The position numbers and the translations under genes were made by a program. A stretch of DNA of 64,000 nucleotides from positions 744,001-808,000 of the forward strand of contig OZ025782.1 of assembly GCA_964019425.1 (NCBI GenBank), given 5' to 3'. This DNA comes from Flectonema sp. DT1601. Its lineage: Eukaryota. This document shows, piece by piece, positions 10,877 through 48,200 of the stretch (position 1 is its first letter; each line of letters opens with the position of its first letter). The notes beneath the pieces are model-generated. The model searched no databases and was not told where the DNA came from. It was given only the letters and a program-made list of their open reading frames with translations.

Positions 10877-11620
10877 ATGCCGGTAGTTCGGAAAGTTCAT
10901 CGTAGCTTTACAGTGGGATCGGTGACAATTCGAATTGTTGAGGGAGACATCACTTCAGCCACAACTGAAGTGATAGTCAACGCCGCTAATATGTTGAGTT
11001 TCACTCCAATGGATTGTGGCGTGTCAGGTGCCCTTCGAAACGCTTGCAAACCAGACAACGTAACTGGAAAAGAGAAGCGCTGGTGGAATGACGAAGGAAC
11101 CGAACACAACACTAAAAAGGTTCCAACAACATATGTTGGACTACAAGAAGCAGCGGGGGGATTAAAAGAAAATGGAGTAAAGTTTATAGGTCACGCTGTT
11201 GGTCCTATTTGGAGTGACTACCCACTCAATGATAAAGTTTTTAAAGTTGTGATGCCGAAGATAAAAGTTACGATCCGTCGTGCTCTTGACCTAACTAAAA
11301 GAGTAGGCGCATCATCGTGTACATTACCTGCTGTGAGTGGAGGGATCTTCACTCACTGGAGTCTAACTTCTGATATCAAATCTCGGGAGCAACGTGCAGC
11401 TCGTTATGCAGCCTGTCAAGCTGTCTTCACGTGGGCAACCAAGAATCAGAATACTTCTGTTACAGATATTGAACTAATAGATTTATCTCGTAGACAGAAA
11501 GGATGCATTCACTTCTTTGCCGATGCATTTGATGCTTCTGTTACTCAATATAACGAAGAGAATGAAGAAACACTTCCTACTTCAAAAGATGAAAAAGACA
11601 CCAGCAGTCTAACGACATGA
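10877..11620 (+). CDS. Macro domain (ADP-ribose binding/hydrolase-like) protein
   Basis: IVEGDIT, VIVNAAN, CGVSGAL, IGHAVGP and LPAVSGGIF macrodomain motifs. Confidence 0.88.
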   Translation: MPVVRKVHRSFTVGSVTIRIVEGDITSATTEVIVNAANMLSFTPMDCGVSGALRNACKPDNVTGKEKRWWNDEGTEHNTKKVPTTYVGLQEAAGGLKENGVKFIGHAVGPIWSDYPLNDKVFKVVMPKIKVTIRRALDLTKRVGASSCTLPAVSGGIFTHWSLTSDIKSREQRAARYAACQAVFTWATKNQNTSVTDIELIDLSRRQKGCIHFFADAFDASVTQYNEENEETLPTSKDEKDTSSLTT

Positions 11621-16511: not shown

Positions 16512-18473
16512 ATGACATACCTCAGCAAGATGTGTATTGCTACCACCAGAGGGATGTACAGCAGACAGATGCTACTACCTCGTCGTTGTAATTTGAGATC
16601 TCAAATGAGATTTTGTGTTAACAATTGGAAACCCCCAGCAGAAGTGAAGAAAGCGAAGGAAAAAAGAACACCTGCTGACATTACAATGGGTGTAATTAGA
16701 ACGATTTGGCCAACAAAGGGACAATGGAGATTAAAATTTCAAATTATGACGGCTTTTGGTTGTGTATTTGGTACGAAGTTATTTGGTATCGCAGTACCGT
16801 ATTGGTTTAAAGGGATAATTGATTCTCTTTCTGTTGATCCGACAATTGTACTTCAGGCTTTCAATCCAATTGGAGTATCTGCGCTAGGTCTTGTAGTCTG
16901 TTACACTCTTTGTAAAGTATTACAAGCAGCAACTCAAGAAGCAAGAGGAGCTCTCTTCGCAACAGTCGTACAAGACGCAATTCGAAGGTTATCTGTTCAG
17001 ACAGCTACTCATTTGCATCAGTTGAATTTAGACTTTCACATTAATCGTCAAACTGGAGCTCTCGCTAAGTCAATCGATAGAGGAACCAAAGCAGTTGACA
17101 GACTCTTAAACTTCGCTTTATTTCACATTATACCTACTGCTTTAGAATTGATTTTAGTGTCTGCTGTTTTGTACAGAGAAGCAGGTTTACCTTTTGTACT
17201 AACGGCATGCACTGCTGTAACAGCCTATACTGTCTTTACTATTATTGTGAGTACTTGGAGAATAGAAGTTAGAAAGACGATGAACAAACACGACACGGAA
17301 TCGAGTGGTTTGATTATTGACGGTCTCTTAAACTATGAAACTGTGAAGTATTTTCAAAATGAAAAATATGAAGTCGATCGATACGATGAAATCCTACGAA
17401 AGTATTCAAAAGACGCAGCAAAGACAACGCAATCACTCTCTTTCTTAAACTTAGGACAGCAACTAATATTTACGTCAGCATTAGCAGTTGCAATGGGAAT
17501 GTCTGTAACTCGTGTTGCTGCGGGGACGATGACGTTGGGTGATCTGATATTAGTGAATACGTTGCTTATGCAATTATCAATGCCGTTAAACTTCTTAGGA
17601 ACGGTATTCAGAGAGTTACAAACAGCTGTGACTGATATGGATAATTTGTTTACTTTGTTATCAAGTAATCAACCACCACCAGAACCAGAGACGAAATTCG
17701 TTTTTAAATCGGGTGAAATTGAGTTTCGTGATGTGTTCTTCAGCTACCGCACGGATCAAGCAGTTCTCAAGGGACTTTCATTTAAGGTTCCAGCTGGTCA
17801 TTCTGTTGGTGTTGTCGGACCATCAGGTTGTGGTAAATCAACAATCCACCGACTGCTATTTAAATTCCATTTCCCATCATCTGGTACCATTCTTGTTGAC
17901 GGACAAGATATTACTGAAATTAGTTCTGAGTCTTTGCGTTCTCATTTCGGAGTCATTCCACAAGACACTGTTTTATTTAATGACACGATCCTTCATAATA
18001 TTCGTTATGGTAAAATAGGAGCTACTGATGAAGAGTGTTATGAAGCAAGTAAGAAAGCAGGTCTTCATGAGACTGTTATGGGATTCCCAGATGGATACAG
18101 CACAAAAGTTGGTGAGAGAGGACTGAAACTCTCCGGAGGAGAAAAACAGAGAGTTTCAATCGCCCGTTGTCTACTTCGCAATGCTCCTATCTTATTAGCA
18201 GATGAAGCGACCTCAGCATTAGACACTCGTACTGAAGCACTCACAATGGATAGTTTACGTGATACTCATAATGAACAACCTTTAACTTCAATTATCATCG
18301 CTCATCGTCTATCAACAATTAGAGATTGTAATGCTGTTCTTGTTCTTAAAGAAGGATTACAACATGAATATGGTTCTCATTCAGAACTAATGGAAAAGAA
18401 AGGATTGTATTACGACATGTGGATGAGACAACAAACAGACACCGAAGAAAAAGAGAAACCAGAAAGTAAGTAA
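16512..18473 (+). CDS. ATM1: Mitochondrial ABC half-transporter ABCB7/Atm1
   Basis: Arg-rich presequence-like N-terminus from ATG 16512; FHINRQTGAL, DGLLNYETVKYF, QLSMPLNFLG, Walker A GPSGCGKST, signature LSGGEKQR, DEATSALD, IAHRLST. Confidence 0.93.
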   Translation: MTYLSKMCIATTRGMYSRQMLLPRRCNLRSQMRFCVNNWKPPAEVKKAKEKRTPADITMGVIRTIWPTKGQWRLKFQIMTAFGCVFGTKLFGIAVPYWFKGIIDSLSVDPTIVLQAFNPIGVSALGLVVCYTLCKVLQAATQEARGALFATVVQDAIRRLSVQTATHLHQLNLDFHINRQTGALAKSIDRGTKAVDRLLNFALFHIIPTALELILVSAVLYREAGLPFVLTACTAVTAYTVFTIIVSTWRIEVRKTMNKHDTESSGLIIDGLLNYETVKYFQNEKYEVDRYDEILRKYSKDAAKTTQSLSFLNLGQQLIFTSALAVAMGMSVTRVAAGTMTLGDLILVNTLLMQLSMPLNFLGTVFRELQTAVTDMDNLFTLLSSNQPPPEPETKFVFKSGEIEFRDVFFSYRTDQAVLKGLSFKVPAGHSVGVVGPSGCGKSTIHRLLFKFHFPSSGTILVDGQDITEISSESLRSHFGVIPQDTVLFNDTILHNIRYGKIGATDEECYEASKKAGLHETVMGFPDGYSTKVGERGLKLSGGEKQRVSIARCLLRNAPILLADEATSALDTRTEALTMDSLRDTHNEQPLTSIIIAHRLSTIRDCNAVLVLKEGLQHEYGSHSELMEKKGLYYDMWMRQQTDTEEKEKPESK

Positions 18474-27848: not shown

Positions 27849-30800
27849 ATGGCGGAGCCTCCAATACCAGTACTGACTGCTCATAAAACAACAGCACCTC
27901 CATTTGATATCGCGTCTCGTATTAATATAGAAGATATTTATGATAACCCAGAGTTGATCGGAGATGTTATCGATGAGGACTTTGTTTCTAATCTCAAGTT
28001 GGCGAAGTTTACTCCGGAAATCGTAACAAAAACAGATCCTGATAAAGTCTGTCGAATGCTACAAGTCTTTCAACTGATGTTTGAATGCGTTGAGTCTGAT
28101 CAAAATTGGTACATGGACACTCTGAAGAATGAAGCAAGTGGTCACCGTCGCGTTACAGAAGACACACAAGTCCTTCAAGCTCTTAATGATGACCTTCAGG
28201 TTCGATTACAAGAGAGAAGTGACAGGATTGCTGAACTACAAAGAGAATTAGATAAGAAAAAAGATCTGCAAAAGAACTTTGAAGTATGCAGTCAGAGAGT
28301 TTTTCAACTCCAAGCAGACCTTGAACGACACAAGTCACAAAACGAAGAATACAGAAAGTCAGTAGAACAAAAGCTTAAGAGAGCTGCAGAAGTTGAAGCT
28401 CGTACTCGTAAAGATACCCGCGAAGGTGAGCGTGATGTCCGTGCACTCCAACAGATGATTCAGCAAACTGAAGATGAACTTAGAAAATCTGATCGACTTC
28501 TTCGATCTTCAAAAGCATCAGAACAAACTTTATTATTCAGATTAGAAGAAATGGAGAATAAAGAACGAGCTCTTCGTGTGATGCTCGATGACTTGAACGA
28601 CTCTAATGAGAACCTTCGCTTTCGACTCGAAGAAAAGGAAGACCAGTGTCTGTCACTTGAAAAACACGCTGTTGAAGATCTTCAAGCCATCCGCGATAAG
28701 ACATCAAAGTCAGCTGTTGATAATGAACGAGTCACTCATAAACACAAACAAGAATTACAACAAATCACAGCTTCGTTAGCACTTCAAAAGGAAGAGAATT
28801 TCAATTTACAAAAGAAAGTATCCGAAACTCATCAAATAATGGACGACATGGCTGAGAAGGCTGCTTCTAAAGACACGGAGTGTAAACATCTTCGTCATCA
28901 GTTAGACAAACTTGAAAAGGTTCGTGTCAGTCAGCAATCATTTCCTCTTCCATTAACAACTCCAGACTTATCAGGTATAAAGGGAAGTTCTGAAGAGTTT
29001 TATCAACTAGCTGAGTTACTAAAACAAAGAACCAGAGACCTAGCACTCGAACAGGCTCGAAGACAAGACGACGAACGAGAAAGGAATCGACTTGATCGTG
29101 ATGTTGTTGAACTTCGAAAGCAACTTGACATCTATGAGCGTTCAGGAGTTGAAGGTGCAGTCGCAGAAAAACGTGCTCGGATTGCAGAAATGCAACAATG
29201 CTTAGACGAGCGAGACAATGCTCTTATTGAAATGAGAGACAAACTAAACCAGGCAGATGAAGATCTCGATAATCTGTTGGAATTCACAGAAGCATTAAAA
29301 CAACTCGCACTCGAGTGTGGACTAACAAGGGAACAGATTATGAGTTTATCAACAATGAAGGTCCCACACACAGAGAGAAAGTCAACAGAAGTTGAAGAAC
29401 TACGAGAGAAACTCTACGTCAGAGACAGAGAGATTGAAATATTAGAACGAGAGAGGCTTCACTGGAAGAAACAAGTCCGACTACAAGCTCTACCTAGATT
29501 CGAACAGGCTCAGAAGATGGGAATCACACCTGAGCAATTATCAATGCTTGCTGATATTAGAGATAGAATGAGGGAATCGGATTCTACTGATATTCAAGCT
29601 CTTGTTGGTGAAGGAGAGGATTATAATCTCATAGTCGGAACTTCCCGCGCTGCTTTAGAGCGCCAGAATAAGTCTCTCTCTGATAAGGTTACCTCTCTCA
29701 GGGCTGAACTCGCCAAATTCGAGGGAAAATATGAAGTTCTTAAAGAACACTACCACAGACTACATCTCAATCAGGATAAGTTTCAACAGCAGATTAATAT
29801 TTCAAAAGATCCAGCAGGAAGTATTTGGCACACGAGTGGCATGTTGACGGACAAGAAGAGTTCCTCTGCATCCGGAAACACAAGTGAAAGTGGTGATGAG
29901 AATAGTAAAGAAAAGAAGAAGAAAACATCAATTGCACCAGACAGTAGTCCAATGTTTCCTCCACTTCCACAGAATCTGATGCAGCAATTAGCAAACGCGC
30001 AGCTAAATGACGGTCGAGTTCAACAGATGTTGGGAGACTACAATAAAACAAATACTGTTTTGGGTGAACTTCGTAAGGAACTTCAACGAACAAACGACTC
30101 CCTTGAGAATGCTGAACGACGTGCTAAAGGATACCTCGAAGAGAGAGATGCATTCAGACGAACACTCGCTTACAGAGATGGGTTCAAACAAAAGACACCA
30201 ACAGAATCAGATCAAATGCTACCCGCAACTAGTGAACCAGAAAAGTCTGAACCTCAAGCTGAAGGTCACAATGAACTTTGGGATACTGATCCTGAGCAGG
30301 CAGCAGCACTTTCTCCAAAAGCTGCTGCAACTGAAATTGAAGCAGCTCTTCATCAGGAGATCGCAAATAAAGAAAATGCTCTTCGTACTCTGATGGTCGC
30401 ATACGATAAGAAGGAATCTGATATCGTTGAAGGTGAGAAGATAAAGAATGAAGCAATAGATCGAATGGCTGATATGAAAGACAAGTTTGAGAATGAACAG
30501 TTTGAAGGAGTTCGTTTAAAAGCTGACTTAGAATATCTGAGAGAATGCCTATCCGATACAGAATCACTACTACAAGAAGAAAGAACTAAACTTGAAGAGC
30601 ATCAGGAATACATTGCAGGCTTACAAGGGAAATCTGATGACCCCACACTCAGAGAAGCCGGCACTGAAGTAATGAGAAAGGTAACTGCTCTTCGTGTAAA
30701 CGAAATCAGACTAATAAAACGTTACAAAATGTCAATGGCTGAGTCTGACACTTCTCGTGAACGACTCCGAGAGAGTGAAAAATCCCTCATAGCACTTCAA

Positions 30801-33800
30801 AAGGAAACAGGCGAACAGATTGCTTCCTTATTAGGACAACTAAAGGAATCAGAAGGCGTCCAGAAAGTACTCCACGACCGATTAGAGTTTACTGAGAAGA
30901 CTCGGAACTTTGAATCTTTAAGAATTCAGTTGGGAACTGCTAAACAGGAACTTCAAACTTATCTTTCAATTGAGAGGGATGACAATAATGCGAAGCATCA
31001 ATACGCGGAGCTAAAAAAAGAGGCCGAGGCCTTGAAACGTGATATCGGGGAAATCACAATTGAGCGAACCAGCGTCAAGGAAGAACTGCAACGAACAAAA
31101 AGACTCCTTGAGCAAGGAGCAACAGATGGAAATAGTTTAAGAGAAAGAGAAAAGATTGTAGAACTCGATATGGAGGTCAAGACTGCCAACCAAAAAGTTG
31201 ACTTGAACAGGAATCGAGCTCAAGCGGCTGTTCGAGAAGCTGGTGTTTTAGAAAGTGAGAAATTAGAGATGTCGGGGGAGATTGTATCCCTTCGACAGAA
31301 GCAAGCCAAGCTACTGAGTGAACTACGAGAAGCACAAGAATCTCTTCAGGACAGTGTCGCCTTGTCAGAAATGCAACAGCTTCAATCAAAAATAAACGAT
31401 CTCGAAACAGTTAAAAACAAAGCCGAAGCCAGATCAATTCGCGCAATTGAAACCAGCCAAGCAACAGTAGAATACAGCCTCACAATAGAACAAGTTCACA
31501 ATCAATATAAAGAAGAACTTGAAACACTACGTCGTGTTATTGCTGGACTCGAACCTGCGAATGACGAGGGATACGTTCTTGGTGAAATGCAGTATCGCAC
31601 ATTTCAACAACAAATTCAAAATATTGCTTTAAAGAAAGAGAAAGAACAAGCCGAACTCTCTCTAGTTTCTAAGAAGGCTCGCACACAAGCTATTCATGTG
31701 CAGAACACTCAACTTCTAAACGAACTTGCGAAGGTTTACGATGAATACATTCAAAAGAGTCATGAGCTCCACCAATCAAACGTGACTCTAAAAGGAGAAC
31801 TAGACGGCAGGCTATCCCCTGAAGATTCTTCTAAACTTAATAAACAATTAGAAACAGAACGTCGTAACGTTGAAGACTCAAACAAGTCTCTTAGGGATGC
31901 GAAAAAAAAAATCAGCGAGTTGGAATTCCGCGAAGACGAATCACAAAAGATTCAAGACGCTATTCGATTACTGGATACGAGAGATATGTCAAAAATAGAA
32001 ATTGAATACAAGAAAACTGTTCAAGACTTATCAGCGACGAAATTGCAATCTCTGAAAACGGAATGGCAGGGAAGAGAACTATCAGAGGAAGTAGTCATGT
32101 TGAGAAAACTAAAAACAGCTTCTCAAGAACAAATGGAATTCCTTCAAAAAGAAACCGTCGAACTACAACAACAACGAGATGCTTCTAATAACGAGTTCAC
32201 TCGTAAAGTTGAAGAACTTTATCAAAAGTTAAAAGAGTCTAAAGTTAGAGAAGCAGCAACTATGAAACAAAGCATCCGAGACAGAGAATCAAACAATAGT
32301 TCCATAATGGCACCACAAGTTAAAGATAATGAAGAACACATATCTATTCTTAATAATAAAATAAAAGAAATGAGATCTTCTGAAACAGCTCAAAACAACA
32401 ACAATTCAGAATTGAGGAATAAAGTTGGGAAACTGACAGCTGACATTCACAATTTAAAGTCTGATTTAGAAAAGAGAAATGTCATCAACGCTGCGCTACA
32501 AAAGGAAGTAATGGATGAGCGTTTGAAGTCTCGGCAGACGGTTGACAGAATACGTGAAGTTGAAACTTCTCGCGGAGAAGCACTACAAGAAGTTGCCAGA
32601 CGTAACACAGCTACCTTACAGGAGCTTCTTCGCAAGAAAGACGACGCCTTGAAACGCGTCACTGATCAACTTAACAACGATCGCCAAGTCTACGCTGCTG
32701 AAAAGCAAATTTCAAATATAAAAATATCCGACCTTCACAAACAGCTTCACAAAGAAAACAGCGACACCATTCGGAAATTTAGCGACAGACTGAATAGTAT
32801 TTCTTCAGCACCACCAATGAGAGCAGAAGATAATGAACCTGTTCCTGGATCCTTAATTGATATTAAAATGGCACAAATGACTGCTGAGTTATCTCGCCAA
32901 CAGGGAAAACTCGACTTAGCAGAAGCAGAGATAAGAAAACTCACCCGAGAGCTAAGTGAACGAGACCTGGCTGATAAAACAAAAGAACAGGTTGTGATCA
33001 CATCCCCTGAGAAACAAATAGGAGCGCAGTGGAGTGTTGATGAAGTACAAAAACTTCAGCAGCAAATCCAAACATTGACGGAACAATTACAAAAGGAACG
33101 CGACATGCACCGCGAGAAGGAACTTGAACAGTCTGCTATTGACGAAGCAGAAAAGTATCAAAAAGTAAATCAATCTGATCAAATACAACAAACTGAATTA
33201 TTTCAAGCAACTATTGTGAAAGCAAAGAAGAAAGGTGTTCGCGTGTTATGTACTCGTGAAATAACATTTCGCAGTGGTAAGAAACTTCAAGTTGGTGACG
33301 CTGGTGTCATATCTCGAGAGGTGTCAGATGAAGACTCGTCTAAAATGGAAATAATTTGGGATAACGGAATTGTATTCGATGCCACTGATGCCGACATTGA
33401 AGTAGCACCACAACCAGCTTTCACCGTTCATAGTGAGACACCAATTGATACAATTAATTTAATTATACTTGAGAGAGAAACTCTTATCCGACAACAAGCT
33501 CTTCAGATTGACGACTTCGAACGCCAACTTCTAAAGTGTTCCAGAGATCGTTCAGAAGCCGTTGACTCCGAACGCCTCGCTCACAAGAAAAGACGGGAAG
33601 CTGAAGAGATCAACGAACGCCTCCAACTAGAACTTGGCGACAAGGCATCTGCGGCTCTGCAATCTCAAATAACAAAATTGGAAGGCCATGTTCGAAATTT
33701 AGAAGCCGACAAAAAAAGTCTTGAAGGCGAGGTTCGAACTACACATGAAGCACTAAAGTCAACAAAATCAGAGCTGGCAATTCGCTACAAAATAGAATCC

Positions 33801-36455
33801 CAAAACAGCAGACGTGACAAAGTAGATGAAGAGCTACGCACACGTTTTGAAGAAGTTCAAAAAGAGTCAGACAAGAACATTCAATCTCTGCAGTACCGCA
33901 TCAAAGCAATTAAATCAGACTTTGAAGGAGTTCTCTCTCGTGAAGAAACTCTTCTGAAGGAAGTTGAAAATGAGAAAAAGCGAACTGCAGCCTTAGAGTC
34001 CTCCCTCTCAGTTGCTGAAAAACTAAACGAATCGACGCAAAAACAATCAAAAGAAGCATGGGTTGGTGCCAACAGTAGTTTTGAAGCAAAGGGTTTTGAG
34101 CAACAAGCATCTATTCCTACTTTGAATGAGGAGTTATTAAAGAGAGAGAATGATAAATTGAATAGGACAGTCGATGAGCTTGAAATACAAAACCGAGTTC
34201 ACCGACTGAAAGAGAAGAGCAACCTGTCAAGACCACAACAACAACAAACTTCACCTTTAAGAACTTCTTTAGATAATAAATCTGAATTATATGAACTTAG
34301 ACAAGAACGAGCTGAGTGGACAGCAATCAAATCAGCTCTTATCCACAAACTACGAGAAGCACAGGAAGACACGGAAAAAAGAGAGCGTTCAATCAAACGA
34401 CAGCTCGACAACTGCCGCTTTGCAACTGAAAGAAGGATTTCTGATATTAAAAAGGAAGCAGAAATAGCAATGGCAGACACGGAAACATCAAATGGAAGAG
34501 TCGAATCACTCAAAAGAGAATTAGAAAATGTGAGATCAGAACTACTGCAGTCGACGAATGCTGTTGGGAATTTGCAAACTGATTTGACGAAGGCTGAAAG
34601 TTTGTTGCAGTCTCTCAGACAAAAACAGTCTGCGACTTCGTCTGAAGCTCCACAGCGACGAGTAGTTCAGAGGACTAAGAAACCTCCAAGAGAAGCACTT
34701 TGTCATATCGGAGTGAATACGATGCCTGTGCCATTAACTTCATCATCACCACAAGATGATGCACCAGACAAGGAACTAATGTCTTACAGAGGAATCTCAC
34801 CCAAGAAAAGAACTACCGCAACCATACCAAAACCAGGTTCTAGCAACGAGGTAATGAAGTATTGGGAAGAGAATAAAAAGTTGAAAAGGATTATAAATAA
34901 CCTGAAGCAAACCCAGAGACAAAAAAGTACCATGATCCCCTTAGCAGAACACGACAAGGTTAAAGGTGAACTTATAAAGGTTCAAGAGGAACTTCGCTTT
35001 ACAAGAGAAAAACTTGCTGTGAAACAAGAAGAACTCCACCAGAGAGCTGTAGACATGCATACTTTTGAGAAAGTAAATTCATTTAAGAATGAAATAATGA
35101 GACTTGAAGATGAAAACATGCGTCTAAAGAGAAGCATCGAAATTGAAAGTGAAATTGAGATAAGAAACCTGCAGCATGCGTTGCGAAGAAAAGATGAGCA
35201 AATCCAACAAATGGAAGCCTTGTACACAAAGAATGATGAAATAAGGATAGATGTCCAATTAACAGAACACGTACCATCAGTACCTCACTCAGTTATAAAT
35301 CAATTGATAATTGATAACCCAACCATCACTGACAGATTAGAATCATTAAGACAGATGTTCAAATCAACAGAAGACCGACTGTTGGAATCAACAAATGAAA
35401 TCCTTCAACTTCGATTCGCAAAAGAAGCCGCTATCGCACAGCAACAACGAGCAGAACGTCATCTCAAAGACTTACAGTCTATAGTCCCAACTAACATGGA
35501 GAGTACTGGTGCTGCAATTATGGGAAATTTAAAGCTCAGTAAAGACAGGCAGATTCATGACTTTCAGCAAGTCATCGCTGGAATGAAGACTGTTATTGAA
35601 CGATTAAAAACTGACAAAGAAACCCTCGAGAGAAACGGAATCAGCAACATGAAATATGTTGAGATCATGAAGGAAAATAAAAATCTAAAAGCAAAGTTGT
35701 CGGCGACTAAAACAGCTGAAAAGGAAGTAAAACAACAACAAGAAACACATCAACCTCAGAGTACGACGGAATCAACTTTACTAAAGAAGAAGTTAAAAAG
35801 AGAACAAGAGATCTCATCAAAACTACGAGATGATCTTTCTTTATTAACAGCTGCATTTCAAGAAGAACAAACTAAAAGATTACAACCGTCAGAGTCAACT
35901 CAAGCAATGCAACGTCTCGAAGAAGCAAACAATCAAATGGCTGAAGATGCTCTCCTCGGTGAGAAACTACGAAGTGAAGTTACAATTCTAAGAAATGACA
36001 TCGAAGGGTGGCGTCAAAGATGTGAATCTGCTCAGCTTGAGAATCAAATTCTAACAAAACGGAACACAAAATTAGAAGCTGACCTCTCACTGTTTGATGT
36101 TGAGTTCCTTGAGGAAGTTGCGAATCTTCAAAAACAAAATGCGGATCTTCAAAAAGTAAATAAACAACTCGAAGAGAAACTTGTCGTTCAATCTGTTTTT
36201 GATCCTCTTTCTGAAGAACCATCTCGAGGACTTGCTGGTATTAGAAAACGACAATCAACACTTCGAGACAGCATCGATTCAACTTCCAGTTCGATAAACG
36301 ACAGTAGGATAGCTGCAGCAATACGAAGCTTACAACAGCCAGTATCGACGTCATTAGACACTGATGGTGTTCCTGCAACTTCTTCTGCTTCAACTTCACT
36401 CGACTTGTCTAACTACACCAGATCTAGATTAACAGGTGGTAGGTACTCAAGTTGA
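27849..36455 (+). CDS. CEP290: CEP290-like ciliary transition-zone coiled-coil protein (2868 aa, no intron needed)
   Basis: Giant coiled coil with motifs I recognise from CEP290, in the expected order: IEILERERLHWKKQVR, RKVTALRVNEIRLIKRY, YWEENKKL, FDVEFLEEVANL. Orthology is from recalled motifs only. Confidence 0.72.
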   Translation: MAEPPIPVLTAHKTTAPPFDIASRINIEDIYDNPELIGDVIDEDFVSNLKLAKFTPEIVTKTDPDKVCRMLQVFQLMFECVESDQNWYMDTLKNEASGHRRVTEDTQVLQALNDDLQVRLQERSDRIAELQRELDKKKDLQKNFEVCSQRVFQLQADLERHKSQNEEYRKSVEQKLKRAAEVEARTRKDTREGERDVRALQQMIQQTEDELRKSDRLLRSSKASEQTLLFRLEEMENKERALRVMLDDLNDSNENLRFRLEEKEDQCLSLEKHAVEDLQAIRDKTSKSAVDNERVTHKHKQELQQITASLALQKEENFNLQKKVSETHQIMDDMAEKAASKDTECKHLRHQLDKLEKVRVSQQSFPLPLTTPDLSGIKGSSEEFYQLAELLKQRTRDLALEQARRQDDERERNRLDRDVVELRKQLDIYERSGVEGAVAEKRARIAEMQQCLDERDNALIEMRDKLNQADEDLDNLLEFTEALKQLALECGLTREQIMSLSTMKVPHTERKSTEVEELREKLYVRDREIEILERERLHWKKQVRLQALPRFEQAQKMGITPEQLSMLADIRDRMRESDSTDIQALVGEGEDYNLIVGTSRAALERQNKSLSDKVTSLRAELAKFEGKYEVLKEHYHRLHLNQDKFQQQINISKDPAGSIWHTSGMLTDKKSSSASGNTSESGDENSKEKKKKTSIAPDSSPMFPPLPQNLMQQLANAQLNDGRVQQMLGDYNKTNTVLGELRKELQRTNDSLENAERRAKGYLEERDAFRRTLAYRDGFKQKTPTESDQMLPATSEPEKSEPQAEGHNELWDTDPEQAAALSPKAAATEIEAALHQEIANKENALRTLMVAYDKKESDIVEGEKIKNEAIDRMADMKDKFENEQFEGVRLKADLEYLRECLSDTESLLQEERTKLEEHQEYIAGLQGKSDDPTLREAGTEVMRKVTALRVNEIRLIKRYKMSMAESDTSRERLRESEKSLIALQKETGEQIASLLGQLKESEGVQKVLHDRLEFTEKTRNFESLRIQLGTAKQELQTYLSIERDDNNAKHQYAELKKEAEALKRDIGEITIERTSVKEELQRTKRLLEQGATDGNSLREREKIVELDMEVKTANQKVDLNRNRAQAAVREAGVLESEKLEMSGEIVSLRQKQAKLLSELREAQESLQDSVALSEMQQLQSKINDLETVKNKAEARSIRAIETSQATVEYSLTIEQVHNQYKEELETLRRVIAGLEPANDEGYVLGEMQYRTFQQQIQNIALKKEKEQAELSLVSKKARTQAIHVQNTQLLNELAKVYDEYIQKSHELHQSNVTLKGELDGRLSPEDSSKLNKQLETERRNVEDSNKSLRDAKKKISELEFREDESQKIQDAIRLLDTRDMSKIEIEYKKTVQDLSATKLQSLKTEWQGRELSEEVVMLRKLKTASQEQMEFLQKETVELQQQRDASNNEFTRKVEELYQKLKESKVREAATMKQSIRDRESNNSSIMAPQVKDNEEHISILNNKIKEMRSSETAQNNNNSELRNKVGKLTADIHNLKSDLEKRNVINAALQKEVMDERLKSRQTVDRIREVETSRGEALQEVARRNTATLQELLRKKDDALKRVTDQLNNDRQVYAAEKQISNIKISDLHKQLHKENSDTIRKFSDRLNSISSAPPMRAEDNEPVPGSLIDIKMAQMTAELSRQQGKLDLAEAEIRKLTRELSERDLADKTKEQVVITSPEKQIGAQWSVDEVQKLQQQIQTLTEQLQKERDMHREKELEQSAIDEAEKYQKVNQSDQIQQTELFQATIVKAKKKGVRVLCTREITFRSGKKLQVGDAGVISREVSDEDSSKMEIIWDNGIVFDATDADIEVAPQPAFTVHSETPIDTINLIILERETLIRQQALQIDDFERQLLKCSRDRSEAVDSERLAHKKRREAEEINERLQLELGDKASAALQSQITKLEGHVRNLEADKKSLEGEVRTTHEALKSTKSELAIRYKIESQNSRRDKVDEELRTRFEEVQKESDKNIQSLQYRIKAIKSDFEGVLSREETLLKEVENEKKRTAALESSLSVAEKLNESTQKQSKEAWVGANSSFEAKGFEQQASIPTLNEELLKRENDKLNRTVDELEIQNRVHRLKEKSNLSRPQQQQTSPLRTSLDNKSELYELRQERAEWTAIKSALIHKLREAQEDTEKRERSIKRQLDNCRFATERRISDIKKEAEIAMADTETSNGRVESLKRELENVRSELLQSTNAVGNLQTDLTKAESLLQSLRQKQSATSSEAPQRRVVQRTKKPPREALCHIGVNTMPVPLTSSSPQDDAPDKELMSYRGISPKKRTTATIPKPGSSNEVMKYWEENKKLKRIINNLKQTQRQKSTMIPLAEHDKVKGELIKVQEELRFTREKLAVKQEELHQRAVDMHTFEKVNSFKNEIMRLEDENMRLKRSIEIESEIEIRNLQHALRRKDEQIQQMEALYTKNDEIRIDVQLTEHVPSVPHSVINQLIIDNPTITDRLESLRQMFKSTEDRLLESTNEILQLRFAKEAAIAQQQRAERHLKDLQSIVPTNMESTGAAIMGNLKLSKDRQIHDFQQVIAGMKTVIERLKTDKETLERNGISNMKYVEIMKENKNLKAKLSATKTAEKEVKQQQETHQPQSTTESTLLKKKLKREQEISSKLRDDLSLLTAAFQEEQTKRLQPSESTQAMQRLEEANNQMAEDALLGEKLRSEVTILRNDIEGWRQRCESAQLENQILTKRNTKLEADLSLFDVEFLEEVANLQKQNADLQKVNKQLEEKLVVQSVFDPLSEEPSRGLAGIRKRQSTLRDSIDSTSSSINDSRIAAAIRSLQQPVSTSLDTDGVPATSSASTSLDLSNYTRSRLTGGRYSS

Positions 36456-37038
36456 AAACATAGTTACCTTTTTTTGACCATCTTTTTAAGAATATAGTAA
36501 TCTATTACGGCTTGCCCTCAATTTTTTTTTTCTTTTTTTCTCGGCGCCCTTTGGTGCCTTTTTTGTTAAAAAAAACAACAAGTCCAATAGATATGGGTAT
36601 TTTTTTTTTTCATTCACCAACCATTCCTCACTCTCACCCTCTGATAGATAGTGTGTAGAGATTATTGCCTTCACCAATGTGGTGGAGGTCAATAGCAGTT
36701 TCAGGGAGTAGACTTTTTTATCTCACATCAAACAAATTGGTTTTAGTTTGTGACTGACGGGAAGAGGTCTTTTATATTTATAAAAAAAAAAAAAAAAAAA
36801 GAAAAATAGTTCTGAAATAGAGTTGAGTATATCCTTTAGATTTTCTGTTAGTTATGTGCCTCGTTGGTTGAATTTAGAGGGTTGTGAACAACTAACGTCA
36901 TCATTTTTATGTATTTCTTATCAGTAATCAGCAACCCAAAGAAATGTTAGTTATAAATAAAAGTTGACCCTCCGTTGTTAATCATTTTTTTTTCATTTCA
37001 CCTTCAGGTAACTTTGACACCGCTAACCACACAAAAAG

Positions 37039-38589
37039 ATGTTCAGCCGAACTGCTTTTCGCTTCTGCGCTGCAGCAAAAGAAAATGTTTTGATTCTGTG
37101 CACTGGAAACAGCTGCAGAAGTCACATGGCTGAAGGAATAATTAATAAGTTCGCAGGAGAGAAGTATCAAGCAGTATCAGCAGGAACAAAGCCAACAGGA
37201 TACGTTCATCCTTTAGCAATTAAGGCTTTGAATGAGATTGGTGCGGATATTTCACACAACACATCAAAGCACACAGATGATGTAAAGTTAGAAGACGGAT
37301 ATGATATTGCTATTACTGTTTGTGACAATGCTTTAAGAGATAAACCAGAATGGTTGAAAGACTCTATTCACATCGGTTTTGAAGATCCAGCTGATGCCAA
37401 AGGAAGTGAAGAAGAACAACTCGAAGTCTTTCGTAACATCAGAGATGAGATTCAACAAAAGATCGTCAGCTATCTAACTCTCAGACAACAGCGTAGATCA
37501 GCTCACACGTCAGCAGATGCGGATTACGATCCAACATTCGATTCTGTGAAGGATTATTACGGAAAGGTATTGTCCACTAACAAGGACTTAAAAACAACTG
37601 CGTGCACAGCATTTGACAGACCTCACCCGATTATTATCGATGCTATTAAAAAGATTCCTGATGCCGTCACAGAGAAGTTTTACGGATGTGGAACACCTCT
37701 ACCTCTTGGTATTAAAGACCTTACTATCTTAGACCTTGGATCTGGTAGTGGAAGAGATGCGTACGTTGCATCTCAACTTGTTGGTGAGAACGGAAAGGTA
37801 ATTGGAATTGATATGACTGACGAACAATTAGAAGTAGCTCGTGCTTCAGCTGAACCATTCACCAAGTCATTAGGATACAAGTCTTGTAACATGGAATTCC
37901 GTAGTGGGTACATTGAATACCTTGACAGAGCTGGTATCGAATCAGAGACTGTTGACTTAGTTATTAGTAACTGCGTTCAGAACCTTTCACCTGACAAACC
38001 AAGAGTAATCAGTGAAGCATTTAGAGTACTAAAACAAGGAGGAGAGTTTCACTTCTCTGATGTCTACAGTGACAGACGTCTACCTGAGAAGGTAACTTCT
38101 AATGAAGTTCTTTGGGGTGAATGTATTGCTGGAGCTATGTACACTGAGGACTTCATTCGTGAGGCTCAGAAGGCAGGTTTTGATGATCCTCGTGTGTTAG
38201 CTGCTACAGAGATAATAGTTCAAGACCCAGAGCTTAAGGAGATCTGTGGAGAAGCCAAGTTCTACTCGATTACCTACAGATTGTTTAAGCTCCCAGAGAT
38301 GCTTGAAACCAAGTGTGAAGACTACGGTCAGTTCGCAACTTACAAGGGAACTATTCCTGGGCATCCAAACAGTTTTACTCTTGATGACCATCACAAGTTA
38401 GAAACTAACAAACCATTTCTAGTCTGCGGTAACACCGCTGCAATGTTAGGTGAGAATGGCGTCAGTTGGTTGTCACCACATTTTGACATCCACGGTGACC
38501 GTAGTGCTCACTTTGGTTTGTTTGATTGTGGACCATCACCAGTCACGACACCAGCTGCATCCGCCCCTGCGGGAGGTGCCTGCTGCTAA
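37039..38589 (+). CDS. Fusion of LMW-PTP-fold arsenate reductase (ArsC-like) and arsenite S-adenosylmethionine methyltransferase (ArsM/AS3MT), with mitochondrial-type presequence
   Basis: ArsC part: VLILCTGNSCRSHMAEG, SAGT, HPLAIKALNEIGADIS, ITVCDNA, GFEDPA. ArsM part: VKDYYGKVL, KTTAC, FYGCG, LDLGSGSGRD, GIDMT, ISNCV, LWGECIAGA, CEDYGQ, VCGNTA, C-terminal GGACC. One uninterrupted ORF. Confidence 0.93.
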   Translation: MFSRTAFRFCAAAKENVLILCTGNSCRSHMAEGIINKFAGEKYQAVSAGTKPTGYVHPLAIKALNEIGADISHNTSKHTDDVKLEDGYDIAITVCDNALRDKPEWLKDSIHIGFEDPADAKGSEEEQLEVFRNIRDEIQQKIVSYLTLRQQRRSAHTSADADYDPTFDSVKDYYGKVLSTNKDLKTTACTAFDRPHPIIIDAIKKIPDAVTEKFYGCGTPLPLGIKDLTILDLGSGSGRDAYVASQLVGENGKVIGIDMTDEQLEVARASAEPFTKSLGYKSCNMEFRSGYIEYLDRAGIESETVDLVISNCVQNLSPDKPRVISEAFRVLKQGGEFHFSDVYSDRRLPEKVTSNEVLWGECIAGAMYTEDFIREAQKAGFDDPRVLAATEIIVQDPELKEICGEAKFYSITYRLFKLPEMLETKCEDYGQFATYKGTIPGHPNSFTLDDHHKLETNKPFLVCGNTAAMLGENGVSWLSPHFDIHGDRSAHFGLFDCGPSPVTTPAASAPAGGACC

Positions 38590-45244: not shown

Positions 45245-48200
45245 ATGGTTTCCTTTAAGAGTGCGGCTGTTGCGCGACTCTTTGCAGTTGCGATTGTGGG
45301 GTGCGTAGCACAGCAAACACCAGTTCCGCTGACTCCTTCACCACCACAGCAGACATCAGTCCCTAACACACCTGCTCCACCTCGTCAGACACCAATTCCT
45401 CTTACGGGCATGCCAACGGGTGTTCCAAATACAAATGCTCCACCACGACAGACTTCAGTTCCTGATACTGTGTCGCCATTCGCATTTCCACCCACTTCAG
45501 TTCCAAATACAAATTCACCGACCTTTATATCTCATGTCCCTCAAACGCCATCACCGGCAGCACAGACACCTGTTCCTCTAACAGTAAGTCCTTCTTACAC
45601 GCAGGGTCCTAATTCATTCGGGACTCCTACTCCAGGTGGTACCTTAGCTCCACTACCAGTTACGACTCCTGTTCCGGATACGTCATCACCAGCTATTCAG
45701 ACTTCTGTTCCTATTACAAGTGTTCCATTACCGCAGTCACCTGTTCCTGTAACTACTTCACCTGCTTTGACACCTGTTCCTATTACGGGATCTCCTCCAT
45801 TTCAAACACCCGTTCCTATAACAGAAGTACCTACACTTGTACCAGTGACACCTTCACCACCTATGCAGTCTCCTACTCCAATGACACCTTCACCACCTCG
45901 TCAGACTCCTGTTCCAAATACGCCTTCACCAGTATGTATTATTGTTTTACTTTATGTGAGTAGTTGAGATAATGCTTAGAGTCATGTTGATGTTAAATAA
46001 CAATCATTTTACTAAATCAAACAGACTTTAATCCCTACGGCCGTGCCAACAGCAGCACCAACTTCAGTTCCTACCACGGTGCCAACTGTTGTTCCAACAG
46101 TTGCGCCAACAGCTGTGCCAACAGTAGTACCGACTAACACTCCGGGTGCTCCACCTACTGCCGTACCAACGAGTGTTCCGATTCCGCCAACTGTCGTTCC
46201 GACAGCTGCGCCAACAGCTGTGCCAACAGTAGTACCGACTAACACTCCGGGTGCTCCACCTACCGCCGTACCAACGAGCGTTCCGATTCCACCAACTGCC
46301 GTGCCGACAATGGCGCCAATGCTGACGCCTGTTCCTGTCGTTCCAACAGCTGTACCAACAGCTGCGCCAACAGCTGTGCCAACAGTAGTACCGACTAACA
46401 CTCCGGGGGCTCCACCTACCGCCGTACCAACGAGTGTTCCGATTCCGCCAACTGTCGTTCCAACAGCTGCGCCAACAGCTGTGCCAACAGTAGTACCGAC
46501 TAACACTCCGGGGGCTCCACCTACCGCCGTACCAACGAGTGTTCCGATTCCGCCAACTGTCGTTCCAACAGCTGCGCCAACAGCTGTGCCAACAGTAGTA
46601 CCGACTAACACTCCGGGTGTTCCACCTACCGCCGTACCAACAAGTGTTCCGATTCCACCTACTGCCGTGCCGACAATGGCGCCAATGCTGACGCCTGTTC
46701 CTGTTGTTTCAACAGCTGTTCCAACAGTAGTACCGACTAACACTCCGGGTGTTCCACCTACCGCCGTACCAACGAGTGTTCCGATTCCACCAACTGCAGT
46801 GCCAACAATAGCACCAATAACGCCTCTTCCGACCTCCGTACCAACAACCGTCCCAACGTCGGTGCCAACTAATACCCCGGGTGTCCCACCCACCGCCGTG
46901 CCGACATGGGTTCCAACGTCGGTGCCAACTAATACCCCGGGTGTTCCACCAACCGCCGTGCCAACAACCGTCCCAACGTCGGTGCCAACTAATACCCCGG
47001 GTGTCCCACCCACCGCCGTGCCGACATGGGTTCCAACGTCGGTTCCAACTAATACCCCGGGTGTTCCGCCTACTGCCGTGCCAACAACCGTCCCAACATC
47101 GGTGCCAACTAATACCCCGGGTGTTCCGCCTACTGCTGTGCCGACATGGACTCCAACGTCAGTGCCAACTAACACCCCGGGTGTTCCGCCTACTGCCGTG
47201 CCAACAACCGTCCCAACATCGGTGCCAACTAACACCCCGGGTGTTCCGCCTACTGCTGTGCCGACATGGACTCCAACGTCGGTGCCAACTAACACTCCGG
47301 GTGTTCCGCCTACTGCCGTGCCAACAACCGTCCCAACATCGGTGCCAACTAATACCCCGGGTGTTCCGCCTACTGCTGTGCCGACATGGACTCCAACGTC
47401 AGTGCCAACTAACACTCCGGGTGTTCCGCCCACTGCCGTGCCAACAACTGCCCCAACATCGGTGCCAACTAACACCCCGGGTGTTCCGCCTACTGCCGTG
47501 CCGACATGGACTCCAACGTCAGTACCAACTAACACTCCGGGTGTTCCGCCTACTGCCGTGCCAACAACTGTCCCAACGTCTGTGCCAACTAACACCCCGG
47601 GTGTTCCGCCTACTGCCGTACCAACGTGGACTCCAACGTCAGTGCCAACTAACACTCCAGGTGTTCCGCCCACTGCCGTGCCAACAACTGTCCCAACGTC
47701 TGTGCCAACTAACACCCCAGGGGTTCCGCCTACTGCTGTGCCAACATGGATTCCAACGGTTGTGCCAACAACGGCAGTACCAACTAACACCCCGGGTGTT
47801 CCTCCTACTGCCGTGCCAACACGAGCTCCAACAGCAGCTCCAAGTACTCCAACGCCAACCTCACCCCCAGTTCAGGAAAAGATCTGTCTTGTCCCTACGC
47901 CTGACCGTGACTGCACAAATAAGAGCGCCGTTCCATGCGTCCTACAAGACGCTTATGTTGATATGGTAGTAGACGGCTTGAGAGAAGACTTGCAGATTAC
48001 TGTCAACGAAACGGCAACTGTTAACAACAACTGCGACACAAGTTCGGCGTGTGATGCGGCGGGAAGTTGTGAGGTTGAGGTTTCAATTCCAAGCAGATCA
48101 TTATCTAAGTATGTATTACTAATTTATTTTATTGTACTTATCAGTAATTTGTTTATTAATCACGATGAGACTCTGCTCTGTACCTACTCACAATAAACAG

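Follow-up and report, generated by a model that had tools for sequence, protein, structure and literature searches.

A predicted mitochondrial ArsC-ArsM fusion protein in the diplonemid Flectonema

The 64,000-nucleotide stretch of Flectonema sp. DT1601 analysed here (contig OZ025782.1 of assembly GCA_964019425.1, positions 744,001 to 808,000; hereafter the window) carries an intronless open reading frame (ORF), 37039-38589 on the + strand, that joins an ArsC-like (arsenate reductase) domain to an arsenite methyltransferase (ArsM/AS3MT) in one 516 aa translation with no internal stop (ORF list, translation). This work shows one reading frame with two folded domains, conserved across diplonemids and existing there in both fused and split states. 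On sequence evidence, the protein may be a two-domain precursor that enters the mitochondrial matrix and acts there, the ArsC half reducing arsenate via glutathione/glutaredoxin and the ArsM half methylating the arsenite with S-adenosylmethionine (SAM); we give this reading slightly less than an even chance.

Textbooks place arsenate reduction and methylation in the cytosol. Arsenate uncouples ATP synthesis, and trivalent arsenic, as arsenite, poisons lipoate enzymes. If the reading is true, a matrix-targeted pair would represent an organelle defending its own phosphate chemistry from arsenate in abundant marine protists, and diplonemid grazers might then contribute to the methylated arsenic of seawater. 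Each half is a known enzyme, and bacteria already have the architecture, unstudied; what looks new, judging from sequence comparison, is a eukaryotic, independently built and probably mitochondrial version with a two-cysteine reductase. The features of the locus are as follows.

36981..37007, + strand: polypyrimidine tract (21/25 C/T) with an AG end at 37006-37007, 31 nt upstream of the ATG
37039..38589, + strand: ArsC-ArsM fusion ORF, 516 aa; GC content at third codon positions (GC3) 0.346, other window ORFs 0.23-0.46
37039..37077, + strand: MFSRTAFRFCAAA, a predicted mitochondrial presequence ending in the motif R-F-C-A and resembling curated D. papillatum mitochondrial leaders
37078..37482, + strand: ArsC-like domain with a low-molecular-weight protein tyrosine phosphatase (LMW-PTP) fold, aa 14-148; C21 (37099), N24, R27, C95 (37321), D116-P117; K102 (37342-37344) at the Cys89 position
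37450..37530, + strand: end of the last ArsC helix and linker, aa 138-164; 22-residue acid-free stretch with 3 Arg (…QQRRSAHTSA), a possible internal processing site
37531..38529, + strand: ArsM/AS3MT domain, aa 165-497; C189, C217, C312, C362; SAM-binding motif LDLGSGSG
38530..38589, + strand: flexible low-confidence tail (model confidence, alignment) with a Cys-Cys end, then stop

The two domains and the missing cysteine

Both halves were placed by homology in known enzyme families. The Pfam LMWPc model matched aa 17-142 (E 1.7e-13) and the closest solved ArsC was that of B. subtilis (1JL3; aa 17-144, E 3.2e-24); Methyltransf_31 matched aa 226-368 (E 3.9e-31) and the closest solved ArsM was Chlamydomonas CrArsM (5EVJ; aa 161-514, E 2.9e-135). 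An AlphaFold2 model produced from a 60-row alignment had both domains well folded (mean predicted local distance difference test, pLDDT, of 89), with lower pLDDT at the junction (~aa 151-190) and in the tail; its predicted template modelling (TM) score of 0.72 gives no proof of a fixed domain arrangement. The ArsC part of the model matched the ArsC structures 1LK0, 8P6M and 1JL3 at target TM scores of 0.85-0.90, and the ArsM part matched 5EVJ across the whole eukaryotic fold (Foldseek E 1e-44, target TM 0.95, 60% structural identity). An earlier reading made from the letters of this DNA (the sequence-only reading) had proposed a single ORF combining an ArsC-like LMW-PTP domain with a complete ArsM/AS3MT, and the ORF, the Pfam matches, the solved relatives and the fold bear this out. 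Every motif that it named lies where it placed it, including CTGNSCRS at 37099 (C21), and transcripts of relatives keep the two domains together as one transcript-derived ORF in related diplonemids.

The four cysteines of the ArsM half, C189 (TTAC), C217 (YGCG), C312 (SNCV) and C362 (GECI), and the C515-C516 end were invariant in 7/7 aligned diplonemid fusion sequences; together with the match to 5EVJ, this alignment confirms the proposed completeness of the ArsM half, terminal CC included. The four align with the cysteine motifs of CmArsM, where the counterparts are C44, C72, C174 and C224. The CC end is unspecific to the fusion, since stand-alone diplonemid and algal ArsMs carry it too.

Thioredoxin-coupled ArsC relies on three redox-active cysteines, Cys10, Cys82 and Cys89 (PMC2714181, PMC9807832), and only two of these are found in the window protein: C21 and C95 are present and the Cys89 position is occupied by K102. 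C21, N24, R27, C95, D116 and P117 are retained in 8/8 diplonemid domains, and the C21, R27 and C95 equivalents also in DIPPA_70145, the D. papillatum ArsC orthologue, so that the Cys82 equivalent is present, and the Cys89 equivalent absent, in all nine diplonemid ArsCs (eight in the main set plus DIPPA_70145). Elsewhere the Cys89 equivalent was found in 209/212 non-diplonemid domains (the remaining three being two gaps and one Thr, with 5 proteins without a parsable P-loop left out) and in 78/80 genome loci, the other two being unparsed. Among 150 cluster representatives, both cysteines occurred in 123 domains and the third was absent in three, one of which is DIPPA_70145 (7 domains unparsed; 20 proteins without a matching P-loop pattern). 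By these alignments the loss is a shared diplonemid trait independent of the fusion, since all four stand-alone diplonemid ArsCs show it too. The ArsC half is not decaying, as its identity across diplonemid fusions is 58-90%.

With the Cys89 equivalent absent, the thioredoxin cascade cannot run as known and arsenate reduction would need another thiol. The PDB entry 1LK0, titled as a disulfide intermediate of C89L pI258 ArsC, suggests that a two-cysteine domain is capable of one round but needs an outside thiol. The domain also differs from the glutaredoxin-type family (Synechocystis, TIGR02689) in having a single Cys (VCDNA) and no CGC pair, and scores 78.8 bits vs that family's cut-off of 157.6. 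Diplonemids possess glutathione and thioredoxin reductases and lack trypanothione (PMC7052976), which rules the latter out as reductant, and ArsCs of the same fold that depend on low-molecular-weight thiols exist (mycothiol type, PMC4360819); recycling by glutathione/glutaredoxin would thus be our best guess. By its residues and scores the domain falls outside the thioredoxin-coupled family, yet it probably acts like an ArsC. The arsenate reduction asserted by the sequence-only reading is therefore backed by fold, CX5R loop and C95 and, with the resolving cysteine of thioredoxin-coupled ArsC absent, is something that we only infer.

Targeting, mechanism and rival readings

The fusion is probably targeted to the mitochondrial matrix. 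Its leader, MFSRTAFRFCAAA, contains 2 Arg and no acidic residue before residue 15, a style matching that of curated D. papillatum matrix enzymes, e.g. malate dehydrogenase DIPPA_02342 (PMC12699882 supplement). A leader test that asked for two or more Arg and no D/E among the first 12 residues (criteria fixed after the data had been seen) was passed by 4/5 fusions, 2/3 stand-alone diplonemid ArsCs and 3/4 stand-alone leader-group ArsMs, as well as by 0/8 ArsMs of the leaderless diplonemid paralog group, 3/117 bacterial-type ArsCs and 2/19 window ORFs. For DIPPA_70145, 5/6 published predictors indicate the mitochondrion (MitoFates 0.81, TargetP2 0.70, MitoProtII 0.97, and the calls of MULocDeep and WoLF PSORT; PMC12699882 supplement). 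The predicted D. papillatum mitochondrial proteome also includes a phosphate carrier, SAM carriers, glutaredoxin and thioredoxin (PMC12699882). The mitochondrial-type presequence proposed earlier thus agrees with the leader's composition and with conserved leaders in relatives; the published predictors are split on DIPPA_70145.

Other Arg-rich starts were noted during this comparison. The only window ORF besides the fusion to pass the leader test, 10877-11620 (+), has an Arg-rich acid-free start and a weak Macro domain match (E 2e-4). An ABC half-transporter at 16512-18473 (+), which is likely a mitochondrial ATM1-type exporter, has a 43-residue acid-free Arg-rich leader with R-F-C, the same end motif as the fusion leader. 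Arg-rich acid-free starts were also seen in 15/107 non-diplonemid eukaryotic ArsMs (P0172, P0175, P0187, P0189, P0203 and others), so organelle-targeted ArsM may extend beyond diplonemids.

In the mechanism that we favor, the Arg-rich leader would drive import and be cleaved after R-F, arsenate, mimicking phosphate, would use the phosphate carrier of the mitochondrion to get in, and SAM would be supplied through SAM carriers. Following family chemistry, C21 in the CX5R loop would attack arsenate and C95 would attack C21, releasing arsenite and leaving a C21-C95 disulfide. The weakest step comes next: as no Cys89 is there to present a looped-out disulfide to thioredoxin, glutathione would have to resolve C21-C95 via glutaredoxin. 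The conserved ArsM cysteines would then bind As(III) and methylation would remove the arsenite, as the structural identity to CrArsM suggests. Fusion would give both enzymes one address; the join would not be obligatory. Tight coupling appears not to be essential, as D. papillatum has a leader-bearing ArsC and only leaderless ArsMs among the matches listed. The most detailed version of this scheme, a dedicated matrix arsenate-to-methylarsenic pathway assembled from a Chloroflexota-derived two-cysteine ArsC, recycling chemistry new for the lineage and a resident ArsM, with the one precursor split by processing peptidase in Flectonema and D. japonicum, is unlikely to be right in every part.

Several observations weigh against a matrix enzyme that both reduces and methylates arsenic. 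Family cut-offs were not reached by either half: the ArsC domain scores 105 bits with NCBIfam TIGR02691 (arsC_pI258_fam), under the cut-off of 174.3, and the ArsM half 181 bits vs a cut-off of 263 with the PRK11873 arsenite methyltransferase model, which was built for the short prokaryotic form. The missing Cys89 equivalent makes multi-turnover arsenate reduction less certain. The leader has only ~13 residues (10-13 aa in Flectonema and D. japonicum), and the leader test is crude, since 15/107 other eukaryotic ArsMs pass it and the long-leader ABC transporter of the window fails. The combined score of DIPPA_70145 is 0.145, in the authors' 'low probability' class (about 1:3), because DeepLoc2, their best tool, called plastid (PMC12699882); the protein is not in the reference set of those authors (PMC12699882) and was not found among the spatial proteomics rows listed (PMC12697944 supplement). 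Lastly, only leaderless ArsMs of D. papillatum were among the best 120 matches, so the two steps may sit in different compartments in that species.

The N-domain could instead act as a phosphatase, bind oxyanions or trap arsenate in a single turnover, with the ArsM alone acting on arsenic. We regard this as unlikely. The resolving cysteine is indeed absent from 9/9 diplonemid domains, weak phosphatase activity is possible in same-fold ArsCs (PMC9807832), many Chloroflexota ArsC relatives lie beside phosphate-uptake-type genes and not ars genes, and trypanosome mt-SAF26 (6SGA) is a mitochondrial LMWPc protein with another role. However, the Cys82 equivalent is retained in the same nine domains, the N-domain is joined to an arsenic enzyme, the same cysteine was lost independently in one bacterial ArsR-ArsC fusion (P0377, a single unverified sequence), and true low-molecular-weight phosphatases and mt-SAF26 score far below ArsCs (E ~2e-6 or weaker vs 2e-25). 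Kinship with mt-SAF26 was ruled out as too distant. A replacement in cis, whereby the C-terminal Cys-Cys arm or the ArsM cysteines would resolve the ArsC disulfide and ferry arsenite between sites, accords with the invariance of the flexible CC-ending tail in 7/7 fusion sequences; it is nevertheless very improbable, given that the stand-alone diplonemid ArsCs (4/4) are also without the cysteine, and without a CC tail, and that unfused ArsMs carry CC as well. A cytosolic or dual-located fusion, in which the short leader would be ineffective and a reduce-and-methylate enzyme would work in the cytosol, would suit the leader length, the low combined score of DIPPA_70145 and the cytosolic position of the D. 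papillatum ArsMs detected by spatial proteomics (DIPPA_00216 and DIPPA_00202; PMC12697944 supplement). We consider it decidedly unlikely, as leaders were retained on both halves after the gene split, a separate leaderless ArsM already exists in F. neradi (P0151) and D. japonicum (P0146), and the leader pattern agrees with curated mitochondrial leaders.

The junction between the domains bears on a further alternative, in which the fusion would be a co-import device, a tandem precursor whose linker is cut by the matrix processing peptidase into separate ArsC and ArsM, as for Arg5,6. This would fit the chemistry proposed above but would mean that Flectonema and D. japonicum have no single-chain enzyme. 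A linker with 18 or more consecutive acid-free residues, two or more of them Arg (thresholds fixed after the data had been seen), was found in 3/5 diplonemid fusions and 0/19 bacterial-type fusions, the acid-free Arg-containing junctions of the Flectonema and D. japonicum fusions being 20-23 residues long. The D. japonicum linker QKRFTST resembles QKRFCSS, the leader end of the stand-alone ArsM P0131, at a similar distance from the domain, and the split ArsC and ArsM forms have leaders of their own. Cleavage by the mitochondrial processing peptidase at internal presequence-like linkers is known (PMC8734313), and both subunits of this peptidase are present in D. papillatum (PMC12699882). Yet two of the five fusions (Hemistasia-type) have acidic, Gly-rich linkers, part of the acid-free stretch is predicted as the last ArsC helix, and internal cleavage also requires a strong N-terminal presequence (PMC8734313) where the fusion leader is short. 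Furthermore, the linker is the least conserved part of the fusion (0-62% identity) and, by its sequence, may be a vestige of an ArsM leader or an internal processing site. We consider the tandem precursor improbable, though not remote. The 'single chain' of the sequence-only reading accordingly holds for the ORF; the halves are separate in Rhynchopus and D. papillatum, and the presequence-like linker in 3/5 fusions means that the chain may be cut after import.

Distribution and origin of the fused and split forms

When proteins 283-903 aa long were searched with the ArsC part, 24 of the 100 matches listed had the motifs of both ArsC and ArsM, without any change of domain order (4 diplonemid and 20 bacterial-type clusters). 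Besides the window, diplonemid fusions were found in Flectonema neradi, whose transcriptome protein is 89% identical to the window protein, Diplonema japonicum, a probable Hemistasia (labelled 'Hpha', presumably H. phaeocysticola) and an environmental sister of Hpha. The environmental fusion is whole and in one frame on metagenomic contig L081, the single fusion among 80 loci kept from a metagenome scan (39/64 parts). L081 presumably starts with the last part of the euglenozoan spliced leader (its 3' end), although this 5' end of the contig gave no Rfam match and the motif was absent from the text available of PMC10161547 and one other paper. The 20 bacterial-type clusters have a short bacterial ArsM, and an organism (Limisphaera) is named for one of them.

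Stand-alone ArsCs were found in Rhynchopus euleeides (P0246), two ENA records (P0247 and P0249) and D. papillatum (DIPPA_70145, P0380). Leader-bearing ArsMs that stand alone were found in R. euleeides (P0135), in F. neradi (P0132) and in two ENA records. A further group of ArsMs, supported at 92, has no leader and includes sequences from D. papillatum, D. japonicum, D. ambulator and F. neradi. Each homologue search listed the best 120-150 matches, a listing that cannot establish absences. Close relatives thus offer a series of forms, fused, split and perhaps cleaved, for asking if the handover from ArsC to ArsM needs a covalent link.

Other partners of the ArsC-like domain were also recorded: 29 of the 100 matches fuse it to quinolinate phosphoribosyltransferase domains PF02749/PF01729 (e.g. 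P0018, P0027, P0033, P0060), and others to PhoU, Acr3, ArsA, aquaporin or acetyltransferase.

The bacterial origin suggested earlier for the ArsC half is upheld by its bacterial type and by its grouping with Chloroflexota proteins in separate ArsC trees. In a quick tree of 60 rows, eight diplonemid ArsC domains formed one clade (Shimodaira-Hasegawa-like approximate likelihood-ratio test, SH-aLRT, 99) adjoining a Chloroflexota clade (95); in a tree of 42 rows, nine diplonemid ArsCs including DIPPA_70145 shared a branch (76/94) inside an 88/90 group with Chloroflexota-like sequences. The half thus likely derives from a Chloroflexota-like bacterium, as far as so short a domain can tell. The ArsC halves of the bacterial fusions are placed apart from these, among sequences of Verrucomicrobiota, Bacteroidota and Planctomycetota, which makes the diplonemid fusion independent of theirs. 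The ArsM half lies among eukaryotic ArsMs and adjoins a group containing Alexandrium (96). A Chloroflexota-like ArsC likely entered an early diplonemid, where it would have become fused to a leader-bearing ArsM paralog already resident. Support for the leader-bearing ArsM group was 0.88 in FastTree and only 56 in IQ-TREE, too uneven a result for counting how often fusion took place.

The D. japonicum fusion (set of P0003, P0005 and P0008) groups with the Hemistasia-type and not with Flectonema, at 95 in the ArsM tree and 80-83 in the ArsC tree. This conflicts with the expected family split, and hidden paralogy or transfer is a possible cause. The two-cysteine bacterial protein P0377 (JGI record) was considered as the donor lineage and ruled out, being nested among three-cysteine Chloroflexota proteins (98/89). 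It is a bacterial ArsR-ArsC fusion that lost its Cys89 equivalent independently and, as a single sequence, resembles the diplonemid sequence just after Cys82.

Gene neighbourhoods were compared at 14 Chloroflexota-titled loci drawn from the 80 genome loci (scan of 2/64 parts; 74/129 extracted ORFs scanned). PhoU and ABC transporter genes were beside the ArsC gene in 5/14, ABC genes without PhoU in 3/14 and ars-type genes in 4/14. The five loci with ArsC genes amid ABC transporter and PhoU genes (L001:912-3000, L002:1317-3560, L003:4204-6108, L005:4195-6162 and L080:3293-5399) apparently represent phosphate-uptake operons.

Known systems and genomic setting

Compared with thioredoxin-coupled ArsCs (S. 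aureus pI258, B. subtilis 1JL3, D. indicus ArsC2 8P5N), the fusion shares the LMW-PTP fold, CX5R and the equivalents of Asn13, Arg16, Cys82 and Asp105-Pro, but it lacks the Cys89 equivalent, falls under the TIGR02691 cut-off, and is eukaryotic, leader-bearing and fused to ArsM. With the eukaryotic ArsM/AS3MT proteins (CrArsM 5EVJ, CmArsM 4FR0, human AS3MT 8XT7) it shares four cysteines and the SAM motif; it differs in the preceding ArsC domain, the predicted mitochondrial leader and, in the Flectonema group, a Gln replacing Ile after SNCV. Synechocystis ArsC (2L17), of the glutaredoxin type by its PDB and NCBIfam names, has the same fold and depends on a small thiol and a redoxin in place of the thioredoxin cascade; its Cys82 site is marked by two cysteines (CGC), that of the diplonemid domain, which derives from a three-cysteine lineage, by a single one. 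Corynebacterium ArsC1/C2 of the mycothiol type likewise share the fold and use a small thiol and a redoxin without the thioredoxin cascade (PMC4360819). As a natural two-cysteine ArsC conserved across the sampled diplonemids, the domain offers a direct test of whether glutathione can replace the resolving cysteine. Another same-fold eukaryotic ArsC was observed in Symbiodiniaceae, where P0375 and its cluster contain as many as three glutaredoxin-type (CCGCG) ArsC domains in tandem.

The sequence-only reading knew of no description of the architecture and stated that eukaryotes usually use Acr2/HAC1 rhodanese-type reductases. Neither ArsC-ArsM fusions nor diplonemid arsenic enzymes were found described in the full-text literature, most subscription journals being outside the search, but the order ArsC then ArsM also occurs in 20/100 matches of non-diplonemid bacterial type. 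These bacterial fusions (Limisphaera WP_423441438, filed as 'arsenite methyltransferase', and Bacteroidota-like and Planctomycetota-like clusters), on which no publication was found, have the domain order of the diplonemid fusion and differ in a short ArsM (38-44% identical over part of the domain in the four tested), a three-cysteine ArsC and no leader. The statement on eukaryotes needs qualifying, since bacterial-type ArsC is already known from green algae (PMC7826186, which also treats algal arsBHC clusters) and from Symbiodinium entries named arsC. Other ArsM fusions, namely ArsR-methyltransferase (PMC10190100) and Naegleria ArsM-SelD (PMC5552862), have a regulator or selenophosphate synthetase as partner, not a reductase. 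In the portions available of PMC6043643 and bioRxiv 10.1101/2020.10.18.342550, ArsC/ArsM-like names are operon shorthand and not fusions, and no word beginning 'arsen' was found in the main text and supplements searched of the mitochondrial proteome paper (PMC12699882). Mitochondrial tandem precursors (yeast Arg5,6 and Atp25, S. pombe Rsm22-Cox11; PMC8734313) resemble the fusion in having one presequence, consecutive-step enzymes and a presequence-like junction, but cleavage of the fusion is suggested by sequence alone, in 3/5 fusions.

Contamination or misassembly was ruled out by the eukaryotic housekeeping neighbours, the similar GC3 and the recurrence of the fusion in independent transcript data. 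Nineteen of the 20 window ORFs of at least 200 aa are on the + strand, and Pfam matches were mostly to eukaryotic housekeeping families. This orientation agrees with the unidirectional gene clusters reported for diplonemids (PMC10161547). The tract at 36981..37007 has the highest pyrimidine content among 15 AG sites in 36801-37045, and its AG at 37006-37007 is likely the spliced-leader trans-splice acceptor, a role assigned by analogy with euglenozoan trans-splicing (PMC10161547). Directly upstream of the fusion, 27849-36455 (+) is a 2868-aa ORF with no Pfam match and a long coiled-coil appearance. Its start may resemble CEP290. Downstream, two Pro/Thr-rich repeat ORFs at 45245-48196 (+), within a GC-rich, C-skewed stretch, probably encode mucin-like surface or secreted proteins.

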